Position numbers and translations under genes: made by a program
Notes under the pieces: model-generated
Told to the model about the DNA's origin: nothing
Seen by the model: only the letters and a program-made list of their open reading frames with translations
The model's database searches: none
Shown: piece by piece, positions 2,308 through 64,000 of the stretch
Layout: the number at the start of each line of letters is the position of its first letter
Numbering within the stretch: the stretch's first letter is position 1
Assembly (NCBI GenBank): GCA_903881545.1
Contig: CAIRTQ010000094.1
Span: forward strand, 1,479 to 65,478
Source of the DNA: an uncultured Elusimicrobia bacterium
GTDB taxonomy: Bacteria; Elusimicrobiota; Elusimicrobia; UBA1565; UBA9628
Reading direction: 5' to 3'
Length of the DNA stretch: 64,000 nucleotides

Positions 2308-3944
<1,637 letters not shown>

Positions 3945-11293: not shown

Positions 11294-11314
11294 GGTCCAT
11301 CGGCCGTTGCCGGT

Positions 11315-12187: not shown

Positions 12188-12220
12188 GCGGCTATAGTAG
12201 CAAATGAGTCCGCGAAGGGC

Positions 12221-38194: not shown

Positions 38195-38197
38195 GGA

Positions 38198-40027: not shown

Positions 40028-40039
40028 AGCTTTACCCCT

Positions 40040-43418: not shown

Positions 43419-43767
43419 TATTGCCCACCTCTTCCTTCCACGCCGCATCAAATCGTTTCGGGGCTTTGAAATACGCCTTAGCGTTTTCGACCACGCGCTT
43501 GAGGACTATGCGGTCTTCCTCATCCATGTCGCGGACCGAAAGCAGTTCCCTAATTCGGTCTTCAGGGAACTTGCCGTAGAGCTGCCCAATCGCGGCGTTG
43601 AGGAAAGACGAGATCATCGTCTCCACCTGCTCAAAGGAGAGGGAAACTTTCTTCCCCTCGCTCAGCAGGAGAGCGATCTTGTCGTAAACGCGTTGGCCAT
43701 CATCGGCAGATACGCCCAACGGACCACCGACGATATCGAATACACGAACCACAATTGGCTCACTCAT
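43408..43767 (-). CDS. DUF4325-like (STAS-like) small protein
   Basis: 119 aa (MSEPIVVRVFDIVGG...GKKVSLSFEQVETMISSFLNAAIGQLYGKF) resembling the STAS-like DUF4325 family. Overlaps the PIN gene by 11 nt. Assignment is from memory of the family and is unverified. Confidence 0.45.
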   Translation of the reverse strand: MSEPIVVRVFDIVGGPLGVSADDGQRVYDKIALLLSEGKKVSLSFEQVETMISSFLNAAIGQLYGKFPEDRIRELLSVRDMDEEDRIVLKRVVENAKAYFKAPKRFDAAWKEEVGNNEE

Positions 43768-43785
43768 CTTTCCACTCCATTCTGT

Positions 43786-48257: not shown

Positions 48258-48553
48258 TTGAGAAGACGCATCCCAGCATCCCATCGCCCGGTAGAAAATG
48301 ATTCTATAAAACCAGCACTAGGCCGGGCTAAGCGCAAGGGCACCATTCAGTCGAGTAGGAGATTTTAGCATGATTGGGCCATCGGGATGCGGCAGACTGA
48401 CAATAGTGCTGGCCGAACTCGACGGCGATAGGACGTAAACTGGTCTCCTCGGCGGCACCTGCGCTTCGCTTAGTGCCGCCGGTTGCGCCCGGCATACGGC
48501 CGCCGGGCGCTCGCTACGGCAAAGCCCGAACTTTATTGTCCCTTATCCGGCGG

Positions 48554-49462
48554 ATGGCATTTGGTAAAATCCTTGCCACCGTGCGTTACCTCGACCCGGT
48601 CGCCCTGGCCAAGCTGCGCAGATTCGACCTCACCATGCGGCGCGTCCTGGCCGAAGGCCACCTCGTCGGCCGCCACCGCAGCGCCGCCAAAGGCCTCTCC
48701 CACGAGTTCGCCCAGCACCGCGCCTACGTCCCCGGCGACGAGATCAAGTCCCTCGACTGGAAGGTCTTCGCCCGGCAGGAGCGCTTCTATGTCCGGCAGT
48801 ACCAGACCGAGAACATACTGGCCAGCGCGGTCCTCCTGGACGCCTCCGGCTCCATGGGGTTCTCCGCGGCCGGCCGCCCGAGCAAATGGGAGCTCGCCTG
48901 CCGCCTCGCCATGGCCGTCTCCTATCTCGTCCTCGCCGGCGGCGACGCGGTCGGCTTGACGACCTTCGATACCGAGCCGCGCGACTACTCCCCCTCCCGC
49001 GCCAGCTTCGGCCAGCTCGCGGTCCTCGACTCGCTGCTGGACCGCTCCCGGCCCCGGGGAGAGACCGATCTCGCTAGCGCCCTGGAGGCCGCGGCCGCGC
49101 GCATCCGCAGGCGCTCCTTGCTCATCCTCATATCCGATCTCCTCGGTGACGCCGGCGCCATCATCAAGGCCATCAAGAGCCTGCGCGCCCGGCGCCATGA
49201 GGTCATGGTCCTGCAGGTCCTCGACCCGGCCGAGAAGAATTTCAGCTTCGACGGCCCCACGTTGTTCCGCGGACTGGAGGACGGCCGCGAGATCTACTGC
49301 GACGCCGCGGCTCTGCAGGACGCCTACCGCGAGGCCTTCGGCCGCCAGCAGAGGCTCTACGAAGCAGGCTGCCATGCCGCGTCCATCCCCTTCTGGTCCT
49401 TCCTTAATGACCGGAGTTGGGAAGACGAGCTGGCCCGATTCCTGGGGCGCGGGCTGTCATGA
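48554..49462 (+). CDS. DUF58 protein (MoxR-associated, VWA-like)
   Basis: About 302 aa from MAFGKILATVRYLDP. DUF58 core (DWKVFARQERFYVRQYQTENILASAVLLDASGSMGF). Confidence 0.8.
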   Translation: MAFGKILATVRYLDPVALAKLRRFDLTMRRVLAEGHLVGRHRSAAKGLSHEFAQHRAYVPGDEIKSLDWKVFARQERFYVRQYQTENILASAVLLDASGSMGFSAAGRPSKWELACRLAMAVSYLVLAGGDAVGLTTFDTEPRDYSPSRASFGQLAVLDSLLDRSRPRGETDLASALEAAAARIRRRSLLILISDLLGDAGAIIKAIKSLRARRHEVMVLQVLDPAEKNFSFDGPTLFRGLEDGREIYCDAAALQDAYREAFGRQQRLYEAGCHAASIPFWSFLNDRSWEDELARFLGRGLS

Positions 49463-52230
49463 CCTTCGCCAATCCGGCCGTGCTCTGGGCTTTGCCTCTG
49501 GCCGCGGCGCCGTTGCTCCTGCACCTGCTCTCCCGGCGCCGGGCCAGGCGCGTGGAGTTCTCGGACCTGACACTGCTGCGGCAGGTGCAGGTCCAGGCCT
49601 TGCCGCGCACCCGGCTGCGCCAGTGGCTTCTGGCCGCGGCGCGCTGCGGCATCATTCTGTTCTTGCTCCTCGCCTATGCCGGCCCGGTCCGGCAAACCCG
49701 CGGCGGGGCCGCGGCGGCCGGGGCCGGCGAGGGCATCGACCTCGTCCTGTTACTGGACAGCTCTTATTCCATGGGCGTCATGGACCGGGGCGTCGCGCGC
49801 CGCGCCGCGGCCCGGTCCGCCGCCGAGGACCTTTTGCGCAGCCTGCGGCCTGCGGACAGGGTGGCCTGCGCCGCTTTTTCGGACCGGTTGGAGGGCGCTC
49901 CGGGAGGCCGGCTGGCCTGGAGCACGCCTCAAGCCTGCCGGGATTTCTTCGACCACAGCCCGGCGGGCTATCGCGGCACTGATTACGCTCCGGCGCTCCA
50001 GGCGGCCTACGCGCTGTTGGCGGGCTCCCGCAACAAGCGCTCCGTGGTGCTCCTGAGCGACGGCGCGGCCCACGGGCTGCGCGGCGCCTTGCCGCCTCCA
50101 GAGCCGGGGACGGCTCTTTACTGCCTTTCCTGGCCGGGCACTCCTTTCAACGCCACGGCGCTCTCGGCCGCACCAGCCCGGGAGAGCTCGGCGCTCCAGC
50201 CGTCCCTGCGCGTCGTGCTATGGGGTTCGGCCAAGGCGGAGACCGCAGTCGACCTTTGGCTCGGCCGAGCGCACCTGGCCACCGCCAAGTCAGCGCTGGG
50301 TCCGGATGGTCCGGCCGCTCTGTCATTGCCGCTGCCCCCGGCTCGGCCCGGGGCCAAGCCGGCCTGGTCAGGCCGGGTGGAACTTCGCCCCGACGCCCTG
50401 GTCGCGGACGACTCCTATTTCTATTCCTTCGAGCATCCCCGGCAGCCGCGCCTACTGGTGCTCTATGGGGCGCCCGGATTCCTTAAAGCTCCGCAAGCGG
50501 GCTATTTTCTCAAGGAACTTTTCGCGAGACGGCCGGGCGGCGCGGCGCAGGGAGGGCCCCTGGATTGGGATGCGGATTTTAGGGCGATGGATGGACTTGC
50601 CAGGGACGCGTTCTCGGACTATGACGCCGCAGCCTTGGCCGACTTCCAGGCGATTCCCGGCCCCCTGGCCGCGGAGGTCGAGCTCTTCGTGCGCCGGGGC
50701 GGCGGGCTTTGGCTCATTCCGGGAAGCCGCACCACGGCCGAATCCTGCGCCGCTTTGGCGGACTGGCTGCCCGCGCGCCTGGGTCCGGCTCCCGATGCCG
50801 GAGCGGCCCGCGGCTTACGGGCGGAGACGGCCGCGGGGCCGTTCGCGTCATGGAAGAACTTCGAACTGGAAAAGGCCGCGGTGACGCGCCGGTTGAGTCT
50901 GGAGCCCAAGCCGGGCTCGGCGGTGTGGCTGCGGACCGCCTTGGGCGATCCGCTCCTCGTCACGGGAGGCCACGGCAAGGGCCGCATCGCGCTTTGGGCC
51001 GCGCCGCTCGACGCCGCTTCGGGCAATCTGCCGGTCAAGCCCGTGTTCGCGGCATTGGTGTCGGCCGTCACCGGCCTCCTGCGCCAGAGCGCGGCCGGGA
51101 CGCAGAGCTTCGCGGTGAAGGTCGGCGAGCCCATCGTCAGGGCCTGGACGGAAAAGGAGGCCGCGCCCGCCAGCGTGAGGCTGCGCTCTCCCGAGGGCCG
51201 GACCACCGGCCTTTGGATCAAGGACCGCCGGGTGGAATTCGCGGAGACCGGCAAGCCCGGCCTTTATGAGATGGAGGACGACTCGGGCGACCGGCGAGTC
51301 TACGCCGTCAACCTCGACCGCGGCGCGGGCGAGAGCGATATGTCCCCCCCGGCCCGCCCGCCCTGGCAGGGACTTGCTGCCGACAAACTGCGCGATGAGT
51401 TCTGGCTCAAGATGCGCGGCCAGGACGCGCGCGCCGCCGCGCTCTGCGCCGCGGCCGCATTAGTGCTATTGGAATTGGCCTTGGCGCTGCCCCGTTCCTT
51501 TTTCGTGCTTCTCCTCTTGGCCGGGCTGGCCGCGCCGGCCGCCTCCCAGCAGGGCGACCGCTTCGTCTGGACCCAGCTCCAGCTCGGGCCCACTTGGGAT
51601 CCCTATCCGGACGCGCCGGCCGAGGCGCTGGAGCTCTTCGCCACGGTCACCAGCGTCCTGGTGGCCCCGCAGCGCCGCGTCATCACCTTGGGCGACCCCG
51701 CCCTCTTTCAATCGCCGCTGGTCCTGCTCGCCGGGCGCGAGGCGCCGGAAGATTTGAAGCCGGGCGAGCAGCAGCGCCTGCGCGCTTATCTGGCCGCGGG
51801 CGGGACGCTGTGGATCGAGGATACCTCCGGCCTGGCCTCCGGCTCTTTCGACCGCTGGGTGCGGCGCACGCTCAAGGAGGTCGCGCCCGAGGCCGAACTC
51901 CAGGCCCTGGGCACCGATGATGTCGTCTTCAAGACCTTCTTCTTGCTGCGCCAGGCCGCGGGCCGGGTCATGACGCGGGCGACCTTGGAGGGCGTGTCCT
52001 GGGGCGGGCGCGCGGCCGTCATCTATTCGCGCAATGACCTCCTGGGAATCTGGATCAAGGACGCCCTGGGCCGGCCGCTCCTGCCCTGCGTCCCCGGCGG
52101 CGAGGCCCAGCGCCACAACGCCCGCAAGCTGACCCTCAACCTGCTCATGTACTCGCTGACCGGCAGCTACAAGGCGGACGCGGTGCACCAGCCTTATCTC
52201 ATGCAGCGGATGCGTTCAGGCGCGCCATGA
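49459..52230 (+). CDS. BatA-like aerotolerance-regulator N-terminal/VWA membrane protein with a C-terminal DUF4159-like domain
   Basis: About 923 aa with a BatA N-terminal TM domain (MTFANPAVLWALPLAAAPLLLHLLSRRR), a VWA-like DxSxS (LLLDSSYSM) and a DUF4159-like C-terminus. Its ATG overlaps the DUF58 stop as ATGA. Confidence 0.65.
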   Translation: MTFANPAVLWALPLAAAPLLLHLLSRRRARRVEFSDLTLLRQVQVQALPRTRLRQWLLAAARCGIILFLLLAYAGPVRQTRGGAAAAGAGEGIDLVLLLDSSYSMGVMDRGVARRAAARSAAEDLLRSLRPADRVACAAFSDRLEGAPGGRLAWSTPQACRDFFDHSPAGYRGTDYAPALQAAYALLAGSRNKRSVVLLSDGAAHGLRGALPPPEPGTALYCLSWPGTPFNATALSAAPARESSALQPSLRVVLWGSAKAETAVDLWLGRAHLATAKSALGPDGPAALSLPLPPARPGAKPAWSGRVELRPDALVADDSYFYSFEHPRQPRLLVLYGAPGFLKAPQAGYFLKELFARRPGGAAQGGPLDWDADFRAMDGLARDAFSDYDAAALADFQAIPGPLAAEVELFVRRGGGLWLIPGSRTTAESCAALADWLPARLGPAPDAGAARGLRAETAAGPFASWKNFELEKAAVTRRLSLEPKPGSAVWLRTALGDPLLVTGGHGKGRIALWAAPLDAASGNLPVKPVFAALVSAVTGLLRQSAAGTQSFAVKVGEPIVRAWTEKEAAPASVRLRSPEGRTTGLWIKDRRVEFAETGKPGLYEMEDDSGDRRVYAVNLDRGAGESDMSPPARPPWQGLAADKLRDEFWLKMRGQDARAAALCAAAALVLLELALALPRSFFVLLLLAGLAAPAASQQGDRFVWTQLQLGPTWDPYPDAPAEALELFATVTSVLVAPQRRVITLGDPALFQSPLVLLAGREAPEDLKPGEQQRLRAYLAAGGTLWIEDTSGLASGSFDRWVRRTLKEVAPEAELQALGTDDVVFKTFFLLRQAAGRVMTRATLEGVSWGGRAAVIYSRNDLLGIWIKDALGRPLLPCVPGGEAQRHNARKLTLNLLMYSLTGSYKADAVHQPYLMQRMRSGAP

Positions 52231-54443
52231 GCATGGGCCTGGAATTCGAAGGCGGCGCCGCCGGCGCCGCGGCGGCGCTGGCGCTGGCGGCCGGCCTGGT
52301 CTGGCACTGCCGCCGCGCGCGGGCCGGCAAGGCCCTGCTGGCCCTGCGCGTCCTGGCCGTTTCGGCCGTGGCGTGCTCCCTGCTGCGGCCGGCCGTGACG
52401 GTGAGCGGTCAACGCCTGGCCAAGCCCCCCCTTCTGGTCCTCCTCGACGCCGGCCATGCCATGGCCGCCCGGAAGGATGCGGGTGGGCGTCTCGAGGCGG
52501 CCCGGGACTGGCTGCTGCGCCGGCGCCAGGCCATCGATGAGCGCTGCGCGCCCAGGTTCTTCGCCCTTTCCGACCGGGGCCGCGGGCTTTCCGGCTGGGA
52601 GGAGCTTTCGTCCTTGACGGCTTCGTCCGCCGGGCTGCATCCCTCCGCGTCCCTGCGCGACGTCGCAGACGACCTGGCGGCGCGGCGCGAGCGGCCGCAG
52701 CGCGCCTGGCTCTTGAGCGACGGCAACGCCGAGCCTGACCCGGATCTGGATGCGGCGCTGGCCGAGCTGCGCCTGCCCGTGGACGTGGTGGGGGTCGGTC
52801 CCTCGCGGCGCGAGCGCGGCGCGGCCATCGTGGACCTGAGGACGCCGGACTTCGCCTTCCTGCACGGCCGGGTGGCGGTGGCCGTCGATCTGGAAGCCTC
52901 TGCGCTGGCCGGCCAGGCCCTGGAGCTTACCCTGTCCAAGCGGGGGCCGCAAGCCGCGTCGGGCTGGGAGGTCGCGGACCGGCGCCGCATCGAGGTCCGC
53001 TCCGACCTGGAGACGGTGGCCGCGACCTTCACGGCTACGGCCCAATCCTTGGGCACGGAGCGCTACCGCGTCGAGGCGCGCGCGGCGGGCGTCCAGGTCG
53101 CGGCGCGCGAGTTCCGCGTCGAGGTCATCCGGCAGAAATACCGCATCATGTATCTTTCGGGCCGGCCCAGCGCGGAATATGCCAACTTGAGGGAGTTCCT
53201 CAAGTCCGACCCCAACCATGAGCTGGTCTCCTTCGTCATCCTGCGCAATCCCGAGAACCCGAGCCTGGTGCCGGAGGACGAGCTGTCCCTCATCCCGTTC
53301 CCGGCATCCGAGATCTTCGTCGATACCCTCCCCCAGTTCGACCTGTTCATCCTGGAGAATTTCTCCTACGCGCGCTTCCATCTGCCCACCGCCTACCTGG
53401 CTTCGCTCAAGAGCTTCGTGGCCGCGGGCGGAGCGTTGCTCGTCATCGGGGGAGAGAACGCCTTCGCCTTGGGCGGCTATCAGGGCACGCCGTTGGAGGA
53501 CGTGCTCCCGGTCACGCTGTCGGACCGGAGCCCGGATTTCGTCCCCGGCCTGTTCCGGGCCAAGCCCGCCGCGCCCGAACACCCCTTGGTCCGCCTCTAC
53601 GACACGGCGGAGCGTTCGCGCGCGGCCTGGGAGGCGCTGCCGGAACTCGACGGCTACGCCCGGTTCGCCTCGGTGCGTCCCGGAGCCAGCGTCCTGGCCG
53701 TCCACCCGGAGGCGCGCACTGGCGCGGGCCAGGCCATGCCCCTGTTCGCGGTGCGCGAGTACGGGCGGGGCAAGGTGATGCTGGTCAGCACGGATTCCAC
53801 CTGGCGCTGGCGGCTGGGCGCAGCCCTGGATTGGAGGACCGCCGATTTTTACGGCCGGTTCTGGACCCGCGCCGTGGAGTACCTTACGGGCAGCCTGGAG
53901 CTCTCCAAGGTCAAGTTCGCGCCCTTGCCGGACCGCCTGCCCGCCCGCGAGCCGGCTGTGTTCTCCATCCGCGTCTTCGACGAGAACTTCCAGCCCGCGG
54001 CCGAGGATGCGACCGCGCTCAGCGTGCTGTGGACCGCGCCCGGCGGCCAGGCGCGCGAGGTCTCGCCCCGGCTCATCGGGCCGGGCAGCTACAGCGTGGA
54101 GCTGACGGGCTTGGCGCCGGGCTGGCATCGGCTCCGGGCCTTGGCGCGCCTGCGCGGCAAGCCCTGGGGCGAGGACGAGGTGCGCTTCGCCTGGGCTAAG
54201 GCGCCTCCGGCCGCGCCCATGGACCTGCGCTGGCTGCGTCACGCGGCCCAGGCCACGGGCGGCTCCTTCACGGAGCTCTCCGGGCTCGAGGCGCGGGCGC
54301 TCCTGGACAAGCTCCCCCCCGTCGCGCGGCAAAGCGAGGTCACGAGCCGGCGGCGGCCGACGGCCTCGCTCTGGTGGCTGGCGGCGGCCTTGGCGCTGCT
54401 CCTGTCCGAATGGGCCTGGCGCAGATGGCGGGGACAGCCGTGA
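52227..54443 (+). CDS. Membrane protein with a VWA-like region and a class-I glutamine-amidotransferase-like (ThuA/DJ-1-like) domain; Bat-operon member
   Basis: 738 aa with an N-terminal TM and a central GATase1-like segment (YARFHLPTAYLASLKSFVAAGGALLVIGGENAF). ATGA overlap with the upstream gene. Confidence 0.5.
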   Translation: MSMGLEFEGGAAGAAAALALAAGLVWHCRRARAGKALLALRVLAVSAVACSLLRPAVTVSGQRLAKPPLLVLLDAGHAMAARKDAGGRLEAARDWLLRRRQAIDERCAPRFFALSDRGRGLSGWEELSSLTASSAGLHPSASLRDVADDLAARRERPQRAWLLSDGNAEPDPDLDAALAELRLPVDVVGVGPSRRERGAAIVDLRTPDFAFLHGRVAVAVDLEASALAGQALELTLSKRGPQAASGWEVADRRRIEVRSDLETVAATFTATAQSLGTERYRVEARAAGVQVAAREFRVEVIRQKYRIMYLSGRPSAEYANLREFLKSDPNHELVSFVILRNPENPSLVPEDELSLIPFPASEIFVDTLPQFDLFILENFSYARFHLPTAYLASLKSFVAAGGALLVIGGENAFALGGYQGTPLEDVLPVTLSDRSPDFVPGLFRAKPAAPEHPLVRLYDTAERSRAAWEALPELDGYARFASVRPGASVLAVHPEARTGAGQAMPLFAVREYGRGKVMLVSTDSTWRWRLGAALDWRTADFYGRFWTRAVEYLTGSLELSKVKFAPLPDRLPAREPAVFSIRVFDENFQPAAEDATALSVLWTAPGGQAREVSPRLIGPGSYSVELTGLAPGWHRLRALARLRGKPWGEDEVRFAWAKAPPAAPMDLRWLRHAAQATGGSFTELSGLEARALLDKLPPVARQSEVTSRRRPTASLWWLAAALALLLSEWAWRRWRGQP

Positions 54444-54470
54444 AATTCCTAAGATGGATTTGAAGATCCC

Positions 54471-57400
54471 ATGAGAATCGCGCTCATACAATGTCCGCTT
54501 TGGGGGACGTTCGACCCTCCCATAGGCTTGGCGCAGATGGCCTCGTTCATGAAGAGCCAGGGTCATGAGGTCGCCGCCTGGGACATCAACATCAAGGCGT
54601 TCTTGAGCCAGCCGGAGGAGCGCAAGAGCCTCTGGGCCTGGGAAAAGACCGAGCTGTGGACCTTCCCGGACCAGGTCCAGAGGATATTCTCGGAGAATCT
54701 GGGGGTCGTGGACCGCTGCATCGACCAGGTGCTCGGACGCGGGATCCGCTTGCTCGGCATCTCCGTCAATTCGGCTTCTTACCTGTTCAGCCTGGAATTC
54801 GCCCGGCGGCTCAAGTCCCGGGAAGGCCGCATCCGCATCGCGCTGGGCGGGCCGTTCTTCCTGAAGCCGGCCGCGACGGCCGACGCCCTGCGGGAGGACT
54901 GCGTCGATTTCGTCATCGCCGGAGAGGGCCTCGCGGCTTTCGCGGAGCTGGCCCGCAGGCTCGACTCCGGCGCGGATGCCTCCGGCTGTCCGGGAGTGGC
55001 AGGCAAGGGCGCCGGACTGGAGGTGAGCAATCCCCCGCCGCCGCCCGCGGACTTGGACGCCCTGCCGTTCCTGGACTTCAGCGATCTTCCTCTCGGCGAT
55101 TACGACACCGGCAATCATCTCTCGCTGATGACGAGCCGCGGCTGTCCCAGGCAGTGCCACTTCTGCAGCTGCGCGCCCTGCTGGCCGGGCTACCGGGTCA
55201 TGAGCGGGCGGCGCATCTTCGAGGAGGTCAGGCACCACAAGGAGCGGTTCGGGCACGGGCTGGGGCATGTGGATTTCGTGGACCTGGCCTTCAACGGGAA
55301 CATGGAGTCGCTGTCGCAGTTCTGTGCCCTGATGGACCGCGCCGACCTCGACCTCAGCTGGACGGCCAACATGTACGTGCGCCCGGAGATGAAGGCTCCC
55401 GTCATCGCGGCGATGGCGCGCGCCCGCTGCCGGCACGTCATCCTGGGCATCGAGTCGGGGTCGGAGCGCGTGCTCAAGCTGATGAACAAGCATTATCGGA
55501 TCGCGGACGCCGAGCGGATGCTGCGCGAGCTGTTCCAGGCCGGGATATGCGTCACCGCGAACTTCATGTTCGGATTCCCCGGTGAGACCGAGGCGGATTT
55601 CCAGCTCACGCTGGACTTCCTGCGGCGCAACGCCCGTTACATGGGAGTCTATCCCAGCCGGACTTACTGCGCCCTCGAGGAGAACAGCCTCCTGGCCGCG
55701 CACCCGGAGCGGTTCGCGATCAAGCCATCTTCCGCGAGCCACATCTTCTGGGAAAGCAGCGACGGCCGGAACACCTATCCCGTCCGCATGGACCGCTGCC
55801 AGCGCTTCTGCCGGCTGGCGGCCAAGCTGGGCGTCGGGACCAGCGCCGGGGTGCAGACCACGGTGCCGCTCGAGGAATGGCTCACGCTGGGGGCCTATTA
55901 CGAGTTCAAGGGCGACATCCCCAAGGCCATCCAGAGCCTGGCCAAATACTTGAGGCGCGACCCGTGCAATCAGGAAGCGAGGCGGCGCCTCGAGGGCCTG
56001 CGCGGCCGCATCCCGTCCTTGGGCCTGGACCGCAAGAAGTCGGACGGCTTGCGCTCATTGGCGGAGCAAACCCTTTCGCGCCGGCCCACGGCCAAGGCGG
56101 TGCGCAGGGACAGGCCCCTTTCTCCCGTGTTCCTGTCCGTCCGGATGACTTGGCTGGCGGCGCGGCTGGGACGGCTCTCTAAGCGCCGGATCTCCTATCC
56201 GGAGACCATGGCAGTCAAGAAGATCATCACCGAGATCGTCCAGATCGCCAGGCTCCAGAAGCGGTTCCCCCCCAAGGTGTCCCGGGGCTTGCTGCGCCAG
56301 ATGGAGCGGCTGCGGCGTCAGGCCCGCGCCCTGCCGATGGCAAGGGGTCTGAAACTAGAGGAAGGCCTGGCCGGCGACGACCCCTCTTATGTTCAGCTGG
56401 GCATCGCCTCCAGCGAACGGGGCGAATTCCCCCAGGCGTTGAGATTTCATGCCAAAGCCATCGCCATCAATCCCTATAATGACGACGCCTATTGTTATAT
56501 GGGCAACATCCTGCGCAAACAGGGTCAGATGAAGGAATCCGACGCGGCTCTCCAGAAAGCCTTGGAGATTAATCCAAGCAACGACACGGCACGCAGCGGT
56601 TTGGGCTGCTTGTACTTCAGCCAGGGCAAGATTGCAGAGGCCTTGGAGGAGCTCACGAAGGCTATCGGGATAAACCCCAGGAATGACTGGGCTCATAACA
56701 TCCGTGCGGACATCTATCTTAGTCAAGGCCGATTATCCGATGCGGAGGCTGATGCTGTAGCGTCCATAAGAATAGATCCCAGGAACGACGGGGCGCATTG
56801 CAAATCAGGTAAGATCCTCCGGCTCCAGGGCCGTCTGGCCGAGGCGGAAGCGGCATTTGAGAAGGCGTTGGAGGTGAACCCGCGCTGCGTTGAAGCCTGC
56901 ACCGCATTGGGAGACATGCTTCAGTCCCAGCATAGGATCGCGGAGGCTGAAGCGGCGTTCCAACAGGCCGTCGCCATGGATCCGAATGATTATGGGGCGC
57001 ACTTATTTTTGGGCCATATCCGTCGCGAGCAAGGAAGATTGGCGGAGGCCGAAGCGCTCTTCAAACGGGCCTTCGCGATAGACCCCCGTAGCGAGGGCAT
57101 CTGCACGGATCTGGGACAGTTCTATCTTGCGCAAGGCCGGCTTTTGGAGGCGGAAGAAGAGATTCGGAAAGCCATAGAGATTAATCCCAAGAATATCTGG
57201 GATTATCTCATCAGGTCGGATATCCACTGCGGTCTGGGCCGGCTGCCCGAGGCCGAGGCGGACATCCGGAAAGCCACGGAGATCGATCCGCGGAACGACG
57301 GGGCGCATTGCAAATTAGGCAATATCCTCCGGCTCCAGGGCCGCCTGGCCGAGGCGGAAGCCACATTTGAGAAGGCGCTGGAGGTGAACCCGTGCTGTGT

Positions 57401-59594
57401 CGGAGCCTGCACCGCATTGGGAGAAATGCTCAAGTCCCAGCAGAGGATTGCAGAGGCTGAGGCGGCGTTCCAACAGGCCGTCGCCATGGATCCGAACGAT
57501 TACGGGGCGCACCTGTTCTTGGGACAGATCCGTCGCGAGCAGGGACGATTGGCGGAAGCCGAGGCGCTCTTCAAACGGGCCTTCGCGATAGACCCCCGCA
57601 GTTATGGCGTCTGCACGGAGCTGGGGCAGTTCTATTTCGCTCAAGGCCGGCTCTTGGAAGCGGAAGAAGAGATACGGAAAGCCATAGAAATAAATCCCAG
57701 GAATATCTGGAGCTATCTCATCGGGTCGGACATCCATTGCGGCCTGGGCCGGCTCCCCGAGGCAGAGGCGGACATCCGGAAAGCCACGGAGATCGATCCG
57801 CGGAATGCCGGGGCGCAGTATTGTTTGGGAAGAATCCGGCGCAGGCAGGGTAGGCTGGAGGAATCCGAGGCGGCTTTCTTGACGGCCGCCGAGATAGATC
57901 CTTCCAGCGATGGGGTTCATACGGAATTAGGCGATCTTTATAGCATCCAGGAGCGGATGCCGGAAGCTGAACTTGAGTTCAAGAAGGCCGCGGAGATCAA
58001 TCCGCGGAACAGTATGGCGTTCTTCTGTCTGGGGAAAATCCACCGGATCCAACGCCGGTTCGCGGAGGCCGAAGCGGCCTTCAGGATGGTCCTGGAAATC
58101 GATCCGCGCCGGGACGACGCGCTCACGGAATTGGGCTCCCTGTATCTGGGGCGGGGCGCGTTCCAGGAGGCGGAGGCCGCCGTCAGGAGCGCCATCGAGA
58201 TCAATCCCAAGAATGACTGGGCTTATCTTATATGCGGGGAAGCCTGTTGCGGCCGGGGCAGTTTCGCGGAGGCGGAGGACAGCGTCAAGAAGGCCATCGT
58301 GATCAACCCGCGCAATGCCGGGGCGCTCCGCGATTTGGGCAAGGTTTATCGCAAGCAGGGCCGGCTGCCGCAAGCCGAAGCGGCGCTCCGGCAGGCGAAG
58401 GCCCTGGACCAGGCGAGCGACGGCGCCTGGGCCGACCTGGGGGACCTTTACCTCGGCCAGGAGAGATTCCCGGAGGCCGCGGTGGAACTCCAGCAAGCCG
58501 TAGCGATGAATCCGAAGAATAGCGCGGCTCATGCCAGCCTAGGATGCGTCTATCGCAAGCTGGGCCGCCTGCCGGAGGCAGAGGTTTCTTTCAAGATGGC
58601 CGTGGCGGCGGACCCGAACAGCGATTGGGCCCGCGCCGAATTGGGAGACATCTACCGCGTCCAGGACAGATTCCCGGAAGCCGAGGCGGCGTTCACTGAA
58701 GCCGTCAAGATGAACCCGAGGAATGAAGGAGCGCTCCGTGATTTGGGTCGGCTCTACCGCCAGCAGGGCCGGTTGCAGGAGGCCGAGGCGGCCTACTGCA
58801 AGGCCTTGGAGATGAACCCCGCCAGCGCTGGCGCCCACACCGAATTGGGCGAGCTCTACCGCGGCCAGAACAGGCTCGCGGAGGCCGCGGCGGAACTAGG
58901 CAAGGCGATAGCGCTCAACCCGAATCAGGGCGAGGCGCATTTCTTGCTAGGATTGGCCTATCGCGCGCAGGGCCTGTCGGCGGAGGCGGAAGCGTCCTTC
59001 CAGAAGGCGTTGGCCTCGGACGCGAGAAGCGATTGGGCCTGCGCCGAATTGGGCGATCTTTATCTGTCCCAGGACAGGCTGTTGGAAGCCGAGGCGGCGT
59101 TCCAGAAAGCCGTCGCTATCGATCGGAAGAATGACCGTGCCCATTTCCTCTTGGGAAGGACCTATGGCAGACAGGGCAAGGTGCAAGAGGCTGAAGCGGC
59201 TCTGAAGAAAGTTCTGGAGCTCAATCCCGGAGCCGATTGGGCCTGCGTTGAAATGGGAGAGCTCTTTCTCTTCCAGGGCCGGCTGGCCGAGGCTGAAGCG
59301 GTGGTCGAGACGGCTATGCGATTGAACCAGAGGAATGACTGGGCGCACTATGTTCGGGCGAAGATATGCTGTCGTCAGGGCCGCTGGCTCGAGGCTGAGG
59401 CAGACGCCAGGAAAGTCATAGAGATTGCCCCGAGGCACGAGCATGCTTATTGCGTTCTGGGGAAGAGCTGCAGCATGCAGGGACGCCAGCCGGAGGCTGC
59501 GGCGGCTTACCAGAAGGCCCTCGAACTGGCCCCGGACAATGCCGAGGCGCGTTCATTCTTGGGCAGCCATGGCGGCGTCGAACTGCGCCCGTAA
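54471..59594 (+). CDS. B12-binding-domain radical SAM enzyme (class B) fused to about 33 C-terminal TPR repeats
   Basis: 1707 aa. N-terminal cobalamin-binding-like domain (MRIALIQCPLWG...), radical SAM CxxxCxxC (SRGCPRQCHFCS), then about 1150 aa of 34-residue TPR units. Confidence 0.8.
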   Translation: MRIALIQCPLWGTFDPPIGLAQMASFMKSQGHEVAAWDINIKAFLSQPEERKSLWAWEKTELWTFPDQVQRIFSENLGVVDRCIDQVLGRGIRLLGISVNSASYLFSLEFARRLKSREGRIRIALGGPFFLKPAATADALREDCVDFVIAGEGLAAFAELARRLDSGADASGCPGVAGKGAGLEVSNPPPPPADLDALPFLDFSDLPLGDYDTGNHLSLMTSRGCPRQCHFCSCAPCWPGYRVMSGRRIFEEVRHHKERFGHGLGHVDFVDLAFNGNMESLSQFCALMDRADLDLSWTANMYVRPEMKAPVIAAMARARCRHVILGIESGSERVLKLMNKHYRIADAERMLRELFQAGICVTANFMFGFPGETEADFQLTLDFLRRNARYMGVYPSRTYCALEENSLLAAHPERFAIKPSSASHIFWESSDGRNTYPVRMDRCQRFCRLAAKLGVGTSAGVQTTVPLEEWLTLGAYYEFKGDIPKAIQSLAKYLRRDPCNQEARRRLEGLRGRIPSLGLDRKKSDGLRSLAEQTLSRRPTAKAVRRDRPLSPVFLSVRMTWLAARLGRLSKRRISYPETMAVKKIITEIVQIARLQKRFPPKVSRGLLRQMERLRRQARALPMARGLKLEEGLAGDDPSYVQLGIASSERGEFPQALRFHAKAIAINPYNDDAYCYMGNILRKQGQMKESDAALQKALEINPSNDTARSGLGCLYFSQGKIAEALEELTKAIGINPRNDWAHNIRADIYLSQGRLSDAEADAVASIRIDPRNDGAHCKSGKILRLQGRLAEAEAAFEKALEVNPRCVEACTALGDMLQSQHRIAEAEAAFQQAVAMDPNDYGAHLFLGHIRREQGRLAEAEALFKRAFAIDPRSEGICTDLGQFYLAQGRLLEAEEEIRKAIEINPKNIWDYLIRSDIHCGLGRLPEAEADIRKATEIDPRNDGAHCKLGNILRLQGRLAEAEATFEKALEVNPCCVGACTALGEMLKSQQRIAEAEAAFQQAVAMDPNDYGAHLFLGQIRREQGRLAEAEALFKRAFAIDPRSYGVCTELGQFYFAQGRLLEAEEEIRKAIEINPRNIWSYLIGSDIHCGLGRLPEAEADIRKATEIDPRNAGAQYCLGRIRRRQGRLEESEAAFLTAAEIDPSSDGVHTELGDLYSIQERMPEAELEFKKAAEINPRNSMAFFCLGKIHRIQRRFAEAEAAFRMVLEIDPRRDDALTELGSLYLGRGAFQEAEAAVRSAIEINPKNDWAYLICGEACCGRGSFAEAEDSVKKAIVINPRNAGALRDLGKVYRKQGRLPQAEAALRQAKALDQASDGAWADLGDLYLGQERFPEAAVELQQAVAMNPKNSAAHASLGCVYRKLGRLPEAEVSFKMAVAADPNSDWARAELGDIYRVQDRFPEAEAAFTEAVKMNPRNEGALRDLGRLYRQQGRLQEAEAAYCKALEMNPASAGAHTELGELYRGQNRLAEAAAELGKAIALNPNQGEAHFLLGLAYRAQGLSAEAEASFQKALASDARSDWACAELGDLYLSQDRLLEAEAAFQKAVAIDRKNDRAHFLLGRTYGRQGKVQEAEAALKKVLELNPGADWACVEMGELFLFQGRLAEAEAVVETAMRLNQRNDWAHYVRAKICCRQGRWLEAEADARKVIEIAPRHEHAYCVLGKSCSMQGRQPEAAAAYQKALELAPDNAEARSFLGSHGGVELRP
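56775..57794 (+). repeat. Intragenic tandem duplication: two 510-nt (5-TPR, 170-aa) units, about 90% identical, inside the rSAM-TPR gene
   Basis: Protein segment DPRNDGAHCKSGKILRLQGRLAEAEA...ADIRKATEI is repeated as DPRNDGAHCKLGNILRLQGRLAEAEA...ADIRKATEI. The DNA aligns base-for-base with mostly synonymous differences. Confidence 0.75.
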
Positions 59595-60572: not shown

Positions 60573-61125
60573 GCGGAAGCCGAAATCCGGAGCCGCGGGC
60601 GGTCGCGCGGACTCGGAATAGGTCTGGGTTAAAAAGAGGTAGGCGGCCAGCGCCTCGTGCAGGTGTTGGAGGCTGGCGTCGGAGCCCGGGCCTGCCGGCG
60701 CGGGGAGACCGGGTGCCCCGCAGGGGCTTCCAGGTGCGTGAGTCCATCCGGCGGATTCCGCCCCAGGCCAGGTAATCCGAAAATTCCGCCGGCGTGGCGA
60801 TTTGCAGTTCGCCCAGCATGGGCGAGAGAAGTTTGGCCCAGCCGTAACGGCGCCAGAGGCCCCGCAAAAGAGCGGTTTCCCGGCCGGCCGGAATATCGAG
60901 GACCATGAGCAGATCCATGTCGCTGACGCCAGGCGTCAGCCCGCGCCGGCTGAGCCCGCGGCGCAGGTAGAGAGCGACCAAGGAGCGGCCCAACGGCCAG
61001 GCTAGCAGCAGCGCCGCCAGGCGGAGCCCCCCAGCATAGGCGGCGCGGTAGCAGGCCCCTAGGACAGGCCAGTCACGGGTCCTTATCACGAGGCGTCGCA
61101 GTGCGGTTGCTCCGGGCATCGACAT
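60283..61125 (-). CDS. Nucleotidyltransferase-domain protein (Pol-beta superfamily, GS-x9-DxD: GVSDMDLLMVLD); only the first ~125 aa look real
   Basis: The N-terminal 125 aa are protein-like with the NTase motif. The remainder of the ORF is R/P/G-rich wrong-frame-like text overlapping the next ORF. Confidence 0.5.
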   Translation of the reverse strand: MSMPGATALRRLVIRTRDWPVLGACYRAAYAGGLRLAALLLAWPLGRSLVALYLRRGLSRRGLTPGVSDMDLLMVLDIPAGRETALLRGLWRRYGWAKLLSPMLGELQIATPAEFSDYLAWGGIRRMDSRTWKPLRGTRSPRAGRPGLRRQPPTPARGAGRLPLFNPDLFRVRATARGSGFRLPHDQRVPGRATPHRGSAAGVAVGRGTRPRPCRHRQRMLPRDPAQPAASGADGPRASHGPAGLRAGPAGRILLRTRRWARGGMRFGTAARRAKKFLSR

Positions 61126-61361
61126 GGAATCTTAAGTGATTCTATATAATTTGAGAAATTCTCTGGCTCGGAGCGATGACGGCAAGTATTACAAGCGTAG
61201 GTCATCCAAGTCAGCGCGCGAGCGGGTCTGTCTTTCGTTCGTATTTTTCCGTCGGGTGGTTGTGAAGTATCCCTCGCAGCTTGTGAAGGCAATTTCTCTG
61301 GCATTCCGGCACTTCTCCGTATATAATGGTTCTTGCCGTGCGCACTCAAGGCAACAAACAC

Positions 61362-64000
61362 ATGGCGGTGCCCATTTCTATGATTCGCAGTCGATTCCCC
61401 CGCGGCATTCTCTTGCGATGCCGGGCGGGGCTGCTGACGATCATTCTTGCGCTCCCCCCATCAGCGATGGCGGCATCCAAGAGTTGGGTCGGCGGTTCCA
61501 ATTCCAATTGGCAGACGGCGGCCAACTGGAGCCCTTCCGGAGTCCCAGGTTCCGCCGACGCGGTCACCATAGACGCCAACATCAGCGTCGTAGCGAACTC
61601 CTCAGCCATCAGCTTCTCGAGTTTGATATTGGGAGATGCCAACGGCACCTTCGCCTCGAACCTTTTCCTTTCAACCGGCCTGGCGAGCGCGGGGAGCGTA
61701 CTGATTTACAAGAAGTCAGGCCTGACCATCGATATCTCCCAGCAATTGTTCATCAACGGTAATTTTACGATGCAGCCGGGCTCGAGCATGACCACCACCG
61801 CAGTGACGGCCACGAATAATCCCGTCGACGCCCAGATTTATTTAACGCTCACCGGCACAGGCATTTTCAATCTCGTGAAGGGCTCGACCGTGAATCTTGC
61901 CGGTTTGGGCTTCGCTGGGGGCGCCAGCCGCGTCACTGGGAAAGGCCCTGGCGGCGGCGGCGGTTCCGGCGCTAACAATTACGGTGGCGGCGGCGGCGGG
62001 CATGGCGGCGCCGGCGGCGCGGGCTACGGAGGCACCGGAGGATTAGCTAATGATACGCCAACCGACCCTGCTTATCCGGGTTCGGGCGGCGGCGGAGGAA
62101 GGTCTTCCAGCGCCGGCTTGGCCGGCGGAGCGGGTGGCGGTGCGTTCATCCTGAATGCGACAAGCGCCACCATCGACGGCCTCATCACCGTGAATGGCGC
62201 CGCGGGAAAGCCCGGCGTCGGTCCTGGCGGAGGCGGAGCTGGAGGGACCGTGAATATGACGGCCGCCTACTTCACCGGCGTCGGGAGCATCAGCGCCAAT
62301 GGCGGGGGCGGAGGCGCGCCCTCCAGCGGAAGAGGAGGAGGAGGAGGAGGAGGAGGAGACATTTCCATTGATATCATGGGCTCGGGTTCGATCTCCGGCC
62401 TGAGCCTGAGCGTGGCCGGAGGCACTAGCTCGGCCACCACGGGATCGCTCGGCGTCATCAGCACGACCGTGACCGTGGCCGCGCCGACCTTGACCTCCGT
62501 CGGGGCGGCTTCCAGCTCTATTGAATGGGATTGGAACGGCGTTGTGGGCGGAGTGAACTACCAGATCTTTTCCTCAACGGGCGGCCTCGGCCAGTCCCCC
62601 CTTCTGGGGGCAGGTGCCACCTATTATGTCGAGTCTGCCTTGACCCCCAACACCACCTATACCCGTTATGTCGTTGTTACTGCCGGTGGATATTCCGCCA
62701 ATTCGACGGTTTTCAGCACAGCCACTCTGGCCGCGGCGCCCACTGCGGCAGCCAAGACATTCAACGCCGTGAACGCGGCGGACATGACTGTGGGCTGGTC
62801 CACCAACGGCAATCCTGTGGGCGTCACGACTTACACCGTGGTCTTAAGCACAGGATCGTCATATCCCAACAGCTACTCAGGGACAGTTTCCATCAGCACG
62901 GTCGCCCAAGGTGCTACTGCGGCCGCTACTTTGACCGGGCTCGCGGCTGATACAACCTACTACCTCTATGTCGCGGCCATGAATTACAACGGCATCCAGA
63001 CCGCTTTCATGCCATTAGGTTCTACCTCGACCTTGGCCAGCGCTCCGTCCAACCCGGTTTTCGTGGCTGTCCTTGCCGGCAGCATCATCGTCCACTGGAC
63101 CGCTCCCTCCGCGGGCACTGCGGCAGGCTACCTGCTCCAGGCCTCGACCGCTTCCAATTTCACTGGAACCATCTACTCCTCCGCCACGCCTAACGCCGTC
63201 TTGAGCACCTTGACCGTTTCCGGGCTCAGGGCCAACACCACCTACTATTTCCAGGTGGCCGGCTTGAACTGGAACTCCGTGCCCAGCTTCACGGTCTGGG
63301 GCGGTTCCACAGCGACGTTGGCCTCCCCCCCCTCGCGCCTAGCCAGCGACTACATCGCCGTCTACTATACCTCGGCCACCTTGCAATGGGCCGCCCTGCC
63401 CCAGTCGCCTTCCAGTCAGACCTGCGAAGGCTATCTGCTGATAGCCTCGACGGCTCCGGATTTCACTGGGACAATCTACTCCTCCGCCACGCCCAACACG
63501 GCCTTAAGCACCCTGACCATTTCCGGGTTGAACCTGGCCAATACCTATTATTTTCAGGTGGGCAGCCTTAACCCCGAATCGGTCTGGAATCCTGTATCTT
63601 TGACCCAGCTCAACATGCAGCTCAGCCAGTCCACGGCCGCCTTGAGCCTCGGCGCCATGGACCCGACGGTGTATTCCTCCACCATATCCATCAGCAGTTT
63701 CGTGGTGACCAACCAGGGCAGCCTGCCTGTCACGATCATGGTCTGGGCCTCGACCATGACCCAGCCGTCGAGCCCGTGGACCTTGGGACTGGCGCCGGAC
63801 AATGAGACCGTCCTGCTCCAGGGCGTCTGGAATTCGGTTGCCCCCTCCTCCGGGAAATTCAACACGGCCATCACCAACAGCACGACGACCTCGACCGGCT
63901 CTAACTACGCGGGCAATCAGACCGGGGTGAGCGTACCGCCGGGGCAGTCGCGGACCATGTGGTTCCAGTTCTGGCGGCCGTCGTCGACAGTCAGCAACGC
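61362..64000 (+). CDS. Large secreted surface protein with a Gly-rich beta-helix-like region and multiple fibronectin-III-like repeats (partial, continues past the window end)
   Basis: Uninterrupted reading frame from the ATG at 61362 to the window end (>870 aa); it is absent from the ORF track, presumably because no stop codon falls inside the window. Signal peptide (ILLRCRAGLLTIILALPPSAMAAS). Repeated ~95-aa Thr/Ser-rich modules (TTYYFQVAGLN...). Confidence 0.65.
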   Translation, partial: MAVPISMIRSRFPRGILLRCRAGLLTIILALPPSAMAASKSWVGGSNSNWQTAANWSPSGVPGSADAVTIDANISVVANSSAISFSSLILGDANGTFASNLFLSTGLASAGSVLIYKKSGLTIDISQQLFINGNFTMQPGSSMTTTAVTATNNPVDAQIYLTLTGTGIFNLVKGSTVNLAGLGFAGGASRVTGKGPGGGGGSGANNYGGGGGGHGGAGGAGYGGTGGLANDTPTDPAYPGSGGGGGRSSSAGLAGGAGGGAFILNATSATIDGLITVNGAAGKPGVGPGGGGAGGTVNMTAAYFTGVGSISANGGGGGAPSSGRGGGGGGGGDISIDIMGSGSISGLSLSVAGGTSSATTGSLGVISTTVTVAAPTLTSVGAASSSIEWDWNGVVGGVNYQIFSSTGGLGQSPLLGAGATYYVESALTPNTTYTRYVVVTAGGYSANSTVFSTATLAAAPTAAAKTFNAVNAADMTVGWSTNGNPVGVTTYTVVLSTGSSYPNSYSGTVSISTVAQGATAAATLTGLAADTTYYLYVAAMNYNGIQTAFMPLGSTSTLASAPSNPVFVAVLAGSIIVHWTAPSAGTAAGYLLQASTASNFTGTIYSSATPNAVLSTLTVSGLRANTTYYFQVAGLNWNSVPSFTVWGGSTATLASPPSRLASDYIAVYYTSATLQWAALPQSPSSQTCEGYLLIASTAPDFTGTIYSSATPNTALSTLTISGLNLANTYYFQVGSLNPESVWNPVSLTQLNMQLSQSTAALSLGAMDPTVYSSTISISSFVVTNQGSLPVTIMVWASTMTQPSSPWTLGLAPDNETVLLQGVWNSVAPSSGKFNTAITNSTTTSTGSNYAGNQTGVSVPPGQSRTMWFQFWRPSSTVSN
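62328..62357 (+). repeat. (GGA)n trinucleotide microsatellite (8 perfect units, 62334-62357) encoding poly-Gly inside the surface-protein gene
   Basis: Read directly: gga aga followed by eight consecutive gga codons. Confidence 0.8.

Follow-up and report, generated by a model that had tools for sequence, protein, structure and literature searches.

Organization of the gene and its protein

The window analysed here is a 64,000-nucleotide stretch of contig CAIRTQ010000094.1 from an uncultured Elusimicrobia bacterium, and the gene in question (the target) is a single open reading frame (ORF) on its forward strand, which runs without interruption over 1707 residues and is placed just behind a Bat-type operon. 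Analysis of the encoded protein reveals an anatomy that is almost certainly composed of three parts, namely an enzyme of about 530 residues from the radical S-adenosylmethionine (SAM) superfamily, a flexible basic tether and a solenoid of 31 tetratricopeptide repeats (TPRs). Coordinates of these parts and of the neighbouring genes are collected in Table 1.

The start of the target is fixed at M1, because M1 is invariant in the family and the relatives open with the same MK/RIALIQCP sequence. Several signs of coding indicate that the frame is not a chance ORF of high-GC DNA: GC content at third codon positions (GC3) is 0.69–0.89, the ratio of nonsynonymous to synonymous substitution rates (dN/dS) against the ortholog is 0.09–0.44, well below 1, and more than 1500 homologs are found at E≤1e-10. 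Exact-sequence look-up of the 1707-residue protein returned no recorded match. An ORF of 1182 amino acids on the minus strand (52194–55742) runs antisense to the enzyme part of the target and to the gene that ends the Bat operon; it is not a gene but a shadow ORF, as can be expected where GC is about 70%. An Rfam search of the window found two tRNAs only, and neither a cobalamin riboswitch nor any other RNA was detected near the target.

The enzyme half was modelled with AlphaFold (residues 1–600, 46-sequence alignment) with a predicted local distance difference test score (pLDDT) of 87.5 and a predicted template modelling score (pTM) of 0.83. Strands and helices alternate in the N-terminal domain of this model, and when residues 1–620 were scanned alone against Pfam, the B12-binding profile PF02310 was matched on residues 81–160 with 36.4 bits (gathering score 32.1). 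The Radical_SAM profile PF04055 is matched on residues 221–384 with 75 bits, the Pfam cutoff being 29.5, and the core carries the invariant family motifs GIESGS (326–331) and NFMFGFP (364–370). All three cysteines of the triad C225-x3-C229-x2-C232 are invariant in the 46-sequence family alignment. A B12-binding domain and a CxxxCxxC radical SAM core had been proposed for the N-terminal part from the sequence alone, and both are confirmed by the two profiles and by matches of the predicted fold. Helices of the C-terminal extension of the enzyme are also modelled with confidence, and the stand-alone relatives (520–550 amino acids) terminate where this extension terminates, near residue 530.

The linker that follows contains 26 lysines and arginines versus 8 aspartates and glutamates, giving a net charge of +18, and its pLDDT is low; an internal methionine, Met580, is located within it at 56208. 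Slicing of the sequence from residue 637 into units of 34 residues yields 31 TPRs in perfect register with zero indels. Their consensus is DGAxxxLGxxYRxQGRLxEAEAAFxKAxEINPRN, in which L7, G8, Y11, A20, F24, A27 and P32 stand at canonical positions. The tandem helix-turn-helix pattern with its 34-residue period identifies the region as a TPR array; TPR_1 and TPR_2 score more than 500 bits each on it, and helix pairs are modelled confidently from residue 639 (pLDDT 76–96). The earlier count of about 33 repeats is therefore corrected to 31 canonical repeats (637–1690) and one TPR-like hairpin within the enzyme (468–507), 32 in total. The description of the C-terminal part as all TPR holds for the long array but not for the 106 non-TPR residues which separate it from the enzyme.

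Table 1. Positions in the window of the target gene, its parts and its neighbours, with nucleotide identity to the second strain (contig L013)
Feature	Position	Strand	Basis or remark
Complete ORF, 1707 amino acids and stop: B12-dependent-type radical SAM enzyme (predicted), basic linker, 31-TPR array	54471–59594	+	
N-terminal Rossmann-like domain, predicted cobalamin-binding type, residues 1 to ~180	54471–55010	+	PF02310, model, Foldseek
Radical SAM core, residues 216–390	55116–55640	+	PF04055 and family-invariant motifs
[4Fe-4S] ligand motif C225-P-R-Q-C229-H-F-C232	55143–55166	+	read in translation
Family-specific C-terminal enzyme extension, residues 391–530	55641–56060	+	conserved in stand-alone relatives
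TPR-like hairpin, residues 468–507, part of the enzyme family	55872–55991	+	TPR_14 match
Basic non-TPR linker, residues 531–636 (106 residues)	56061–56378	+	charge, low pLDDT
44-nucleotide segment missing from scaffold L001	56161–56204	+	contig comparison; 12 substitutions between the window and L013/L034
31 in-register 34-residue TPRs, residues 637–1690	56379–59540	+	slicing from residue 637, model
Five-repeat 510-nucleotide block, two copies	repeats 5–9, 56787–57296; repeats 10–14, 57297–57806	+	89% nucleotide identity, 510-nucleotide spacing
Identity to L013: last Bat gene and start of target	52034–54733		99.3–100%
Identity to L013: remaining enzyme	54734–56233		92–97%
Identity to L013: about repeats 1–16	56234–58033		drops from 85% to 55%
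Identity to L013: last 15 repeats	58034–59533		~90%
Upstream Bat-type operon	48473–54443	+	ends 27 nucleotides before the target
DUF58/VWA gene	48473–49462	+	Bat operon
BatA-VWA-DUF4159 gene	49417–52230	+	Bat operon
GATase1-like membrane protein gene	52227–54443	+	Bat operon, last gene
Convergent gene, 523 amino acids	59553–61125	−	overlaps 3' end of the target by 42 nucleotides

Integrity of the fused reading frame

The fused frame is real and is under selection in at least two strains (four contigs). Intact ORFs of 1707 amino acids, each with the 44-nucleotide segment of the linker region present, occur in contig L013 (JGI), in its duplicate L033 and in L034 (ENA), which differs from L013 by one mismatch. 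Between the window and L013, residues 560–582 of the fused frame show 9 synonymous versus 2 nonsynonymous codon changes, and dN/dS over residues 531–600 is 0.10. The sequence-only reading had itself raised the question of whether the TPR region is a separate gene; a frame that is intact in both strains, with purifying selection across the junction, answers it in favour of the fusion.

The exception is scaffold L001, which encodes the closest database protein (P0001, 95% identical). P0001 diverges after residue 563 into a tail rich in arginine, proline and glycine, because the 44 nucleotides are missing from L001 and its enzyme and TPR ORFs are consequently out of frame. The TPR frame of L001 has its own ATG at Met580, and the enzyme ORF of this scaffold would be extended by 67 out-of-frame codons that overlap the TPR gene. 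A natural 'Rosetta-stone' arrangement of two separate genes was considered for this scaffold and rejected, as L001 is a gapped scaffold of the L013 strain: it is 99–100% identical to L013 and contains a gap of ten Ns and a garbled neighbouring gene 2 kb upstream. Intact independent copies, selection on the fused frame and the poor assembly of L001 together show that L001 is the exception.

That the fusion is instead a functionally meaningless artefact or a decaying gene, with two genes joined by assembly error or by a recent accidental indel, deserves hardly any credence: the out-of-frame halves of L001 with an ATG available for the TPR part, and the frameshifts that the window carries in two other genes (HmaB and the convergent 523-residue gene), would fit it, but the four contigs with the intact frame come from different projects, almost all of the 12 substitutions within the 44-nucleotide segment leave the protein of the fused frame unchanged, and the split version is seen on the scaffold with the gap and garbled sequence, where it would entail the overlapping tail. 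The two frameshifts do indicate that the consensus quality of the window is imperfect; the target ORF is still intact, and its length matches the independent assemblies.

Class and fold of the enzyme

The target has the attributes of the radical SAM superfamily, that is the cysteine motif, the Radical_SAM profile and structural matches to radical SAM barrels. For class B of this superfamily we know of no diagnostic sequence motif. Assignment of the target to class B follows from the predicted N-terminal Rossmann-like domain of cobalamin type, which precedes the radical SAM core in the model, and from the narrow PF02310 score; the enzyme is predicted to be probably vitamin-B12-dependent. It also appears catalytically intact from its sequence, since all 71 of the 71 invariant family columns and 119 of the 137 columns conserved in at least 90% of the relatives are kept. 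The 18 deviating columns show mostly conservative changes.

A Foldseek search with the enzyme model matched OxsB, TsrM, AprD4, MgmA, CysS, MiaB and TokK (E 1e-13 to 3e-17, 14–17% identity). OxsB, TsrM, TokK and CysS resemble the target in the predicted fold (template modelling score 0.5–0.6), having an N-terminal cobalamin Rossmann domain and a CxxxCxxC radical SAM barrel. However, these four act on small-molecule or carrier-bound substrates, share 14–17% identity with the target and have no TPR array; their chemistries also vary among themselves, from ring contraction to polar or radical methylation. AprD4, which works independently of cobalamin, is as good a structural match as they are. The best match by sequence in the PDB is 9CCB (E 1.5e-15 over residues 95–383). 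This entry is MgmA/QCMT, which depends on cobalamin and C-methylates a glutamine in methyl-coenzyme M reductase (PMC11796369; PMC12931638). MgmA has the same layout of Rossmann domain and radical SAM core (Foldseek E 3e-16) and its substrate is a folded protein (PMC11796369; PMC12931638). In contrast to the target, MgmA is archaeal, is 450 amino acids long and has neither a TPR array nor a basic linker, and structure-based identity between the two is about 17%.

Every NCBIfam subfamily model was judged against its curated cutoff, and the scores of the target remain below it for the RiPP C-methyltransferase TIGR03975 (RiPP, ribosomally synthesized and post-translationally modified peptide), which scores highest (113 bits, cutoff 281.85), as well as for ApyD (110, cutoff 750), PhpK TIGR04479 (106, cutoff 600), HpnJ TIGR03471 (94, cutoff 578), MgmA TIGR04014 (81, cutoff 360) and BchE TIGR02026 (65, cutoff 481). 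As no curated functional subfamily model is reached, the type of reaction assumed below is merely the commonest one of the fold.

Relatives of the enzyme and their genomic settings

We define the family operationally by at least 40% identity over the module of about 520 residues together with the C-terminal extension and the TPR-like hairpin. The target, with 40–55% identity to its relatives over residues 1–530 and 40–51% identity to 45 members, belongs to this family. It shares the 71 invariant columns and the C-terminal hairpin with the relatives P0002, P0028, P0098, P0113 and P0244, and P0244 additionally shares the linker up to about residue 560. Unlike the target, a solitary enzyme with 31 TPRs, the relatives are either stand-alone or fused to radical SAM/SPASM, GT2 or methyltransferase modules, and their genes belong to clusters of several radical SAM genes or of glycan genes.

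This clade is large and uncharacterised, and it is abundant in Omnitrophota and Elusimicrobia. Searches of NCBIfam, the PDB and the literature found no curated model, solved structure or description of it. Literature searches on radical SAM combined with TPR and B12-binding domains, or on radical SAM suites of Omnitrophota and Elusimicrobia, likewise returned nothing that describes the family or the fusion, in agreement with the impression of the sequence-only reading that no characterised enzyme has this architecture; none was found in the literature or the PDB. The nearest matches in the GTDB genome collection are metagenome-assembled genomes (MAGs) of Omnitrophota at 51% identity, and no species representative carries the target gene.

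Three groups can be distinguished among the relatives: stand-alone proteins of about 520–550 amino acids, two-module proteins of about 920–975 amino acids, and proteins with two to four tandem copies of the module. Residues 1–1200 were used as query in a representative search, and architectures were taken from its best 266 matches. Two to four tandem radical SAM modules are present in 45 of these, while three (P0247, P0250 and P0377) combine the module with TPR blocks of 130–210 residues, or 4–6 repeats, in the order GT2, class-I methyltransferase, TPR, B12-type radical SAM, TPR, (B12-type radical SAM), SPASM-radical SAM. A 31-repeat array on a solitary enzyme is seen only in the lineage of the target among the matches listed (the top 120–150). 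The target is the extreme case of its family, with 31 repeats and no second catalytic module.

Loci of six relatives were examined (L002/L003, L004/L005, L018, L032, L037 and L038). The first four, from Omnitrophota or unassigned genomes, hold the family gene within co-directional arrays; at least 10 genes annotated as radical SAM/SPASM are present in the arrays of L002–L005 and L032, and in L002–L005 a protein of 1684–1764 amino acids with GT2, GT4, GT1, radical SAM and SPASM modules is encoded alongside. The array of L037, from an Elusimicrobia genome, likewise comprises at least 10 radical SAM, SPASM and B12-type radical SAM genes, includes TPR-radical SAM fusion proteins and adjoins a gene for a 1902-residue NosD/beta-helix protein. 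In L038, P0377 is encoded among FdtA, DegT/EryC1, TylF and further genes combining glycosyltransferase and TPR domains, directly upstream of flagellin, FliS and FliD, a gene order with the layout of a flagellin-glycosylation island. The radical SAM arrays, the glycosyltransferase megaproteins and this island suggest, by sequence annotation, that members of the family usually take part in tailoring glycans or glycoconjugates in several steps, with TPR blocks as a recurrent accessory. The target does not share the clustered setting seen in all six loci, as no other radical SAM or glycosyltransferase gene is present in the window. A literature search for Omnitrophota or Elusimicrobia arrays of at least 10 radical SAM genes found no description of such arrays. 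Groundwater Elusimicrobia have been reported to carry radical SAM suites close to paralogs of nitrogenase (bioRxiv 10.1101/765248), and a link between these suites and the arrays of the relatives is possible.

Origin and divergence of the TPR array

Comparison of the two strains indicates that the parts of the target have different histories. Amino acid identity between the window and L013 is 96–98% over most of the enzyme (86% for residues 101–200), 50–70% for residues 601–1200 and 82–88% for residues 1201–1700, with zero indels; the number of repeats is exactly 31 in both strains despite nucleotide divergence of up to 45%. The synonymous rate (dS) rises to 0.64–1.2 in residues 661–1200 as compared to 0.11 in the enzyme, the nonsynonymous rate (dN) is also raised, and dN/dS of the array is 0.29–0.44. 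The joint rise of dS and dN suggests recombination or gene conversion under purifying selection and not positive selection or decay.

In the window, repeats 10–14 are copies of repeats 5–9, with 29–33 of the 34 residues identical in each repeat. L013 has no such paralogy, and in a repeat-by-repeat matrix repeats 10–14 of the window best match repeats 5–9 of L013. A tandem duplication that adds length was considered for this similarity and rejected, because L013 is equal in length without the paralogy; a five-repeat tract has instead been overwritten in place by conversion within the gene, with length kept, in the strain of the window only. Tandem Repeats Finder reported nothing on the array, as the 510-nucleotide period is above its limit.

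Base composition also changes along the gene. From 0.89 for the enzyme and 0.86 for the linker, GC3 falls to 0.69 over residues 637–1190 and then reaches 0.77 over residues 1191–1707, the corresponding values being 0.85–0.91 for host genes and 0.67–0.72 for the foreign defence island in the window. Another long TPR protein of 967 amino acids is encoded in the window (12221–15124, minus strand) with a host-like GC3 of 0.82, so the low GC3 of the array cannot be put down to its TPR composition alone. The first part of the linker, residues 531 to about 560, shares homology with the segment that connects the modules of P0244, RRDRPLSPVFLSVRM being aligned to RADRPLSSAFVKLQM (BLASTP E 1e-21, RDRPLSxxF motif included); in P0244 this segment leads into a second radical SAM/SPASM-like module. 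BLASTP found no similarity between the linker and P0002, and with the linker alone as query, P0001 was the sole match in a local phmmer search. The homology to P0244 and two breaks located at the linker or directly behind it, one in GC3 and one in identity between the strains, indicate that the fusion is a lineage-specific module swap, by which an enzyme and linker of host-like composition acquired a TPR array that has another origin. On a small scale, the locus cleanly illustrates how modules are swapped and repeats converted without change of length inside one ORF.

Possible function of the fusion

Class-B radical SAM enzymes carry out difficult methylations of unactivated carbons, and the substrate is unknown for most of the thousands of sequences. 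What the target does beyond the identity of its domains is something that we infer. Our preferred reading, put forward tentatively and with somewhat less than an even chance of being right, is that it is a cobalamin-dependent C-methylase with a macromolecular partner recruited by the TPRs. According to this proposal, a [4Fe-4S] cluster on C225, C229 and C232 would reductively cleave SAM, and the resulting 5'-deoxyadenosyl radical would take a hydrogen from an unactivated carbon. Methylcobalamin bound to the N-terminal domain would then donate its methyl group, resulting in C-methylation, the commonest chemistry of the fold. The TPR array would act as a tethered docking platform which keeps a protein partner close to the active site. 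The most plausible candidates for this partner are a substrate that is a protein or glycoprotein and, in a glycan-tailoring pathway, the carrier or partner enzymes.

Both halves of the proposal have counterparts among known enzymes. C-methylation is precedented by MgmA on protein side chains and by GenK and GenD1 on sugars. GenK and GenD1 are cobalamin-dependent radical SAM sugar C-methyltransferases of gentamicin biosynthesis and set a precedent for class-B methylation of sugar carbons; the glycan context of the relatives suggests this chemistry. They differ from the target in being actinomycete enzymes of secondary metabolism with no TPR domain. Enzyme-TPR fusion is itself an already known design, found in eukaryotic OGT, which has about 13 TPRs, and in FlmG, the flagellin glycosyltransferase of Caulobacter, and short TPR blocks are known within the clade. 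The design logic is the same as proposed here: the protein to be modified is docked by a TPR domain to which the modifying enzyme is covalently joined. In OGT and FlmG, however, the catalytic domain is a glycosyltransferase, and the TPR part is N-terminal and much shorter (residues 1–313 in FlmG). Docking has been demonstrated experimentally for FlmG, the TPR domain being necessary and sufficient for flagellin binding and the glycosyltransferase domain being ineffective without it (PMC7591256). P0377, a relative of the enzyme module of the target, is part of a glycosyltransferase-methyltransferase-TPR-radical SAM protein encoded beside flagellin genes. The purifying selection on the array and the retention of 31 repeats are also in favour of a TPR-recruited partner.

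Several observations weigh against it. All curated subfamily models are missed by far, PF02310 passes by only 4 bits, and the best structural matches include the cobalamin-independent AprD4, while OxsB and BchE-type cyclases share the fold too. The window contains no substrate candidate, precursor peptide, glycosyltransferase, sugar-nucleotide gene, flagellin or other radical SAM gene. The glycan context comes from relatives at 30–55% identity and may not transfer to the target. The first two-thirds of the array, at 50–70% amino acid identity between the strains, are hard to reconcile with one fixed partner, and substitutions between the strains are mildly enriched on the putative concave face of the TPRs (7.0 versus about 5 per position).

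The main rival explanation, which we consider unlikely on balance, is a tailoring enzyme for a small molecule, glycan or lipid (a nucleotide- or lipid-linked sugar, or a lipid), in which the TPR array is only a scaffold. The array would not bind the substrate but would organise or localise a multi-enzyme complex, and in this way replace the covalent multi-module arrangement of the relatives. Such a role is suggested by the multi-radical SAM arrays and the glycosyltransferase/methyltransferase megaproteins of the relatives, with their short TPR blocks between catalytic modules, by the tandem modules in 45 of the 266 top matches, and by weak profile similarity to HpnJ, to the ladderane-lipid B12 radical SAM enzyme and to PhpK. 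Poor conservation of the first 20 repeats between the strains also counts in its favour. However, no partner enzymes are encoded nearby in the window, 31 repeats far exceed the 4–6-repeat spacers of the relatives, and the number of repeats is conserved exactly.

A bolder form of substrate docking would make the target a radical SAM counterpart of OGT and FlmG, whose 31-TPR superhelix selects protein or glycoprotein targets and whose specificity is re-tuned between strains by in-register repeat conversion. We regard this as improbable; if true, it would amount to a programmable, protein-directed system of C-H methylation.

A protein- or peptide-directed modification had been proposed from the sequence alone. 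Its peptide form, a RiPP maturase that C-methylates a ribosomal peptide and uses the TPR array in place of a leader-peptide recognition element, is very unlikely. The two highest NCBIfam similarities, to TIGR03975 (113 bits) and ApyD (110 bits), would speak for such an enzyme, but both scores are far below their cutoffs. Nor is any precursor-like small ORF, protease, transporter or RiPP recognition element found nearby. The family context consists of glycosyltransferases, not of RiPP genes. A genome-neighbourhood check for partners or precursor peptides, also suggested earlier, found none in the window, and the loci of the relatives point to tailoring of glycans and to assembly lines of several radical SAM enzymes, not to RiPPs. 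The original proposal is partly supported. MgmA, the nearest solved relative by sequence, acts on a protein, and FlmG shows that docking of a protein substrate by a TPR domain is feasible. A protein- or peptide-directed substrate is not supported by the subfamily models, all far below cutoff, by the window, where no precursor or partner gene is present, or by the glycan and multi-radical SAM context of the relatives.

The contrast between a conserved enzyme head and a hypervariable repeat array in nearly identical strains could, by analogy with STAND proteins that have TPR sensors and with viperin-like radical SAM effectors, hint at an immune or conflict protein with a fast-evolving TPR sensor and a radical SAM effector, and the repeat conversion in the array and the lineage-specific occurrence of the gene in a strain-variable region would suit this. 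We give this idea very little weight, as PADLOC-DB 2.0 yields only generic TPR matches (at most 51 bits) and a 23-bit radical SAM match, no NTPase or other signalling domain is present, dN/dS of about 0.3 with elevated dS suggests recombination or conversion and not positive selection, and the relatives are biosynthetic. Membership in a known anti-phage system was rejected separately, no system-specific PADLOC model being matched.

The main value of the target is that it may offer an experimental way into a large orphan enzyme family: should its TPR array bind a substrate or partner, it could be used as bait to find what the family acts on. If the array is merely a scaffold, the fusion would be an architectural curiosity of an uncultured lineage.

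The Bat operon and other neighbours

Bat operons of Bacteroides include TPR proteins. The target could be read as a component of the Bat system (MoxR-DUF58-BatA-VWA), with its TPR part taking the role of the TPR-containing Bat proteins and its enzyme modifying a Bat component. It lies on the same strand as the operon, 27 nucleotides after the last Bat gene with no terminator-like site between them, so the earlier description of a gene immediately downstream of the operon is correct in position. A functional link does not follow from it. In two sister Elusimicrobia lineages with Bat genes that are about 70% identical, the operon stops at the GATase1-like gene and no radical SAM-TPR gene comes after; unrelated convergent genes (for a 405–411-residue protein and PgpA) follow instead. 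The relatives of the enzyme are never beside Bat genes in the loci examined. The reading as a Bat component is thus largely refuted by synteny, a comparison of gene order, and we consider it highly improbable. Absence of the gene from this place in the two sister lineages suggests that the target is a lineage-specific addition, its adjacency to the Bat genes being no evidence of shared function. Named orthologs of the GATase1-like gene all belong to Elusimicrobia or Elusimicrobiota, and the isoleucyl-tRNA synthetase (IleRS) encoded in the window shares 80% identity with its counterpart in an Elusimicrobia MAG.

The Bat locus itself seems to have been pulled apart by insertions, as MoxR (28632–29624) and the DUF58-BatA genes (from 48473) are about 19 kb apart in the window and about 2–4 kb apart in the sister Elusimicrobia. 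Genes for a permease, a GDT1 transporter, a decarboxylase and a saccharopine dehydrogenase, together with the Hma island described below, lie between them. In one sister genome (GCA_026388095.1; contig L035, 593–2014) a different B12-binding radical SAM gene of 473 amino acids is located two genes upstream of MoxR.

At its other end the target meets a convergent gene, as noted earlier, but the label of nucleotidyltransferase given to this gene lacks support: no match to the 523-residue protein was found in Pfam, NCBIfam, PADLOC or the PDB sequences. The stretch GVSDMDLLMVLD of the protein is nucleotidyltransferase-like in look, and the label is not confirmed by it. The gene is intact in L013 (8120–9691) and has one frameshift in the window at about 60712–60716, which separates residues 1–138 from residues 139–523.

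Beyond it, a secreted protein with a signal peptide, a Gly-rich region and fn3 repeats is encoded from 61326 to 64000, where the gene runs off the end of the window; a sigma-70-like site (61298–61327) is present just upstream. The L013 ortholog (9827–14296, 1489 amino acids) is extended at its N-terminus by a DUF2341 region of about 500 residues, which is absent from the window copy, and the shared parts are about 63% identical, making this another strain-variable gene beside the target. Near the start of the window, a chaperonin-like ORF of 528 amino acids (2349–3935, minus strand) matches Cpn60_TCP1 with 169 bits over 384 of 490 profile positions and may be divergent or disrupted.

The Hma anti-phage system occupies 34793–48284 on the minus strand and forms a low-GC island (GC 0.55–0.60; GC3 0.67–0.72 versus 0.85–0.91 in the host). 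HmaA (44652–48284, minus strand) scores 1698 bits, and HmaC (34793–38194, minus strand), with a Swt1-like HEPN domain at its N-terminus, scores 1124 bits. HmaB is split into two overlapping ORFs, 41200–42972 and 40040–41506, which match profile positions 5–566 and 568–960; as they cover successive parts of the profile, a frameshift near 41.2–41.5 kb is likely. The island also encodes an AriA/GajA-like ATPase (38198–40027), a DUF4325 protein (43408–43767) and a HATPase protein (43786–44655).

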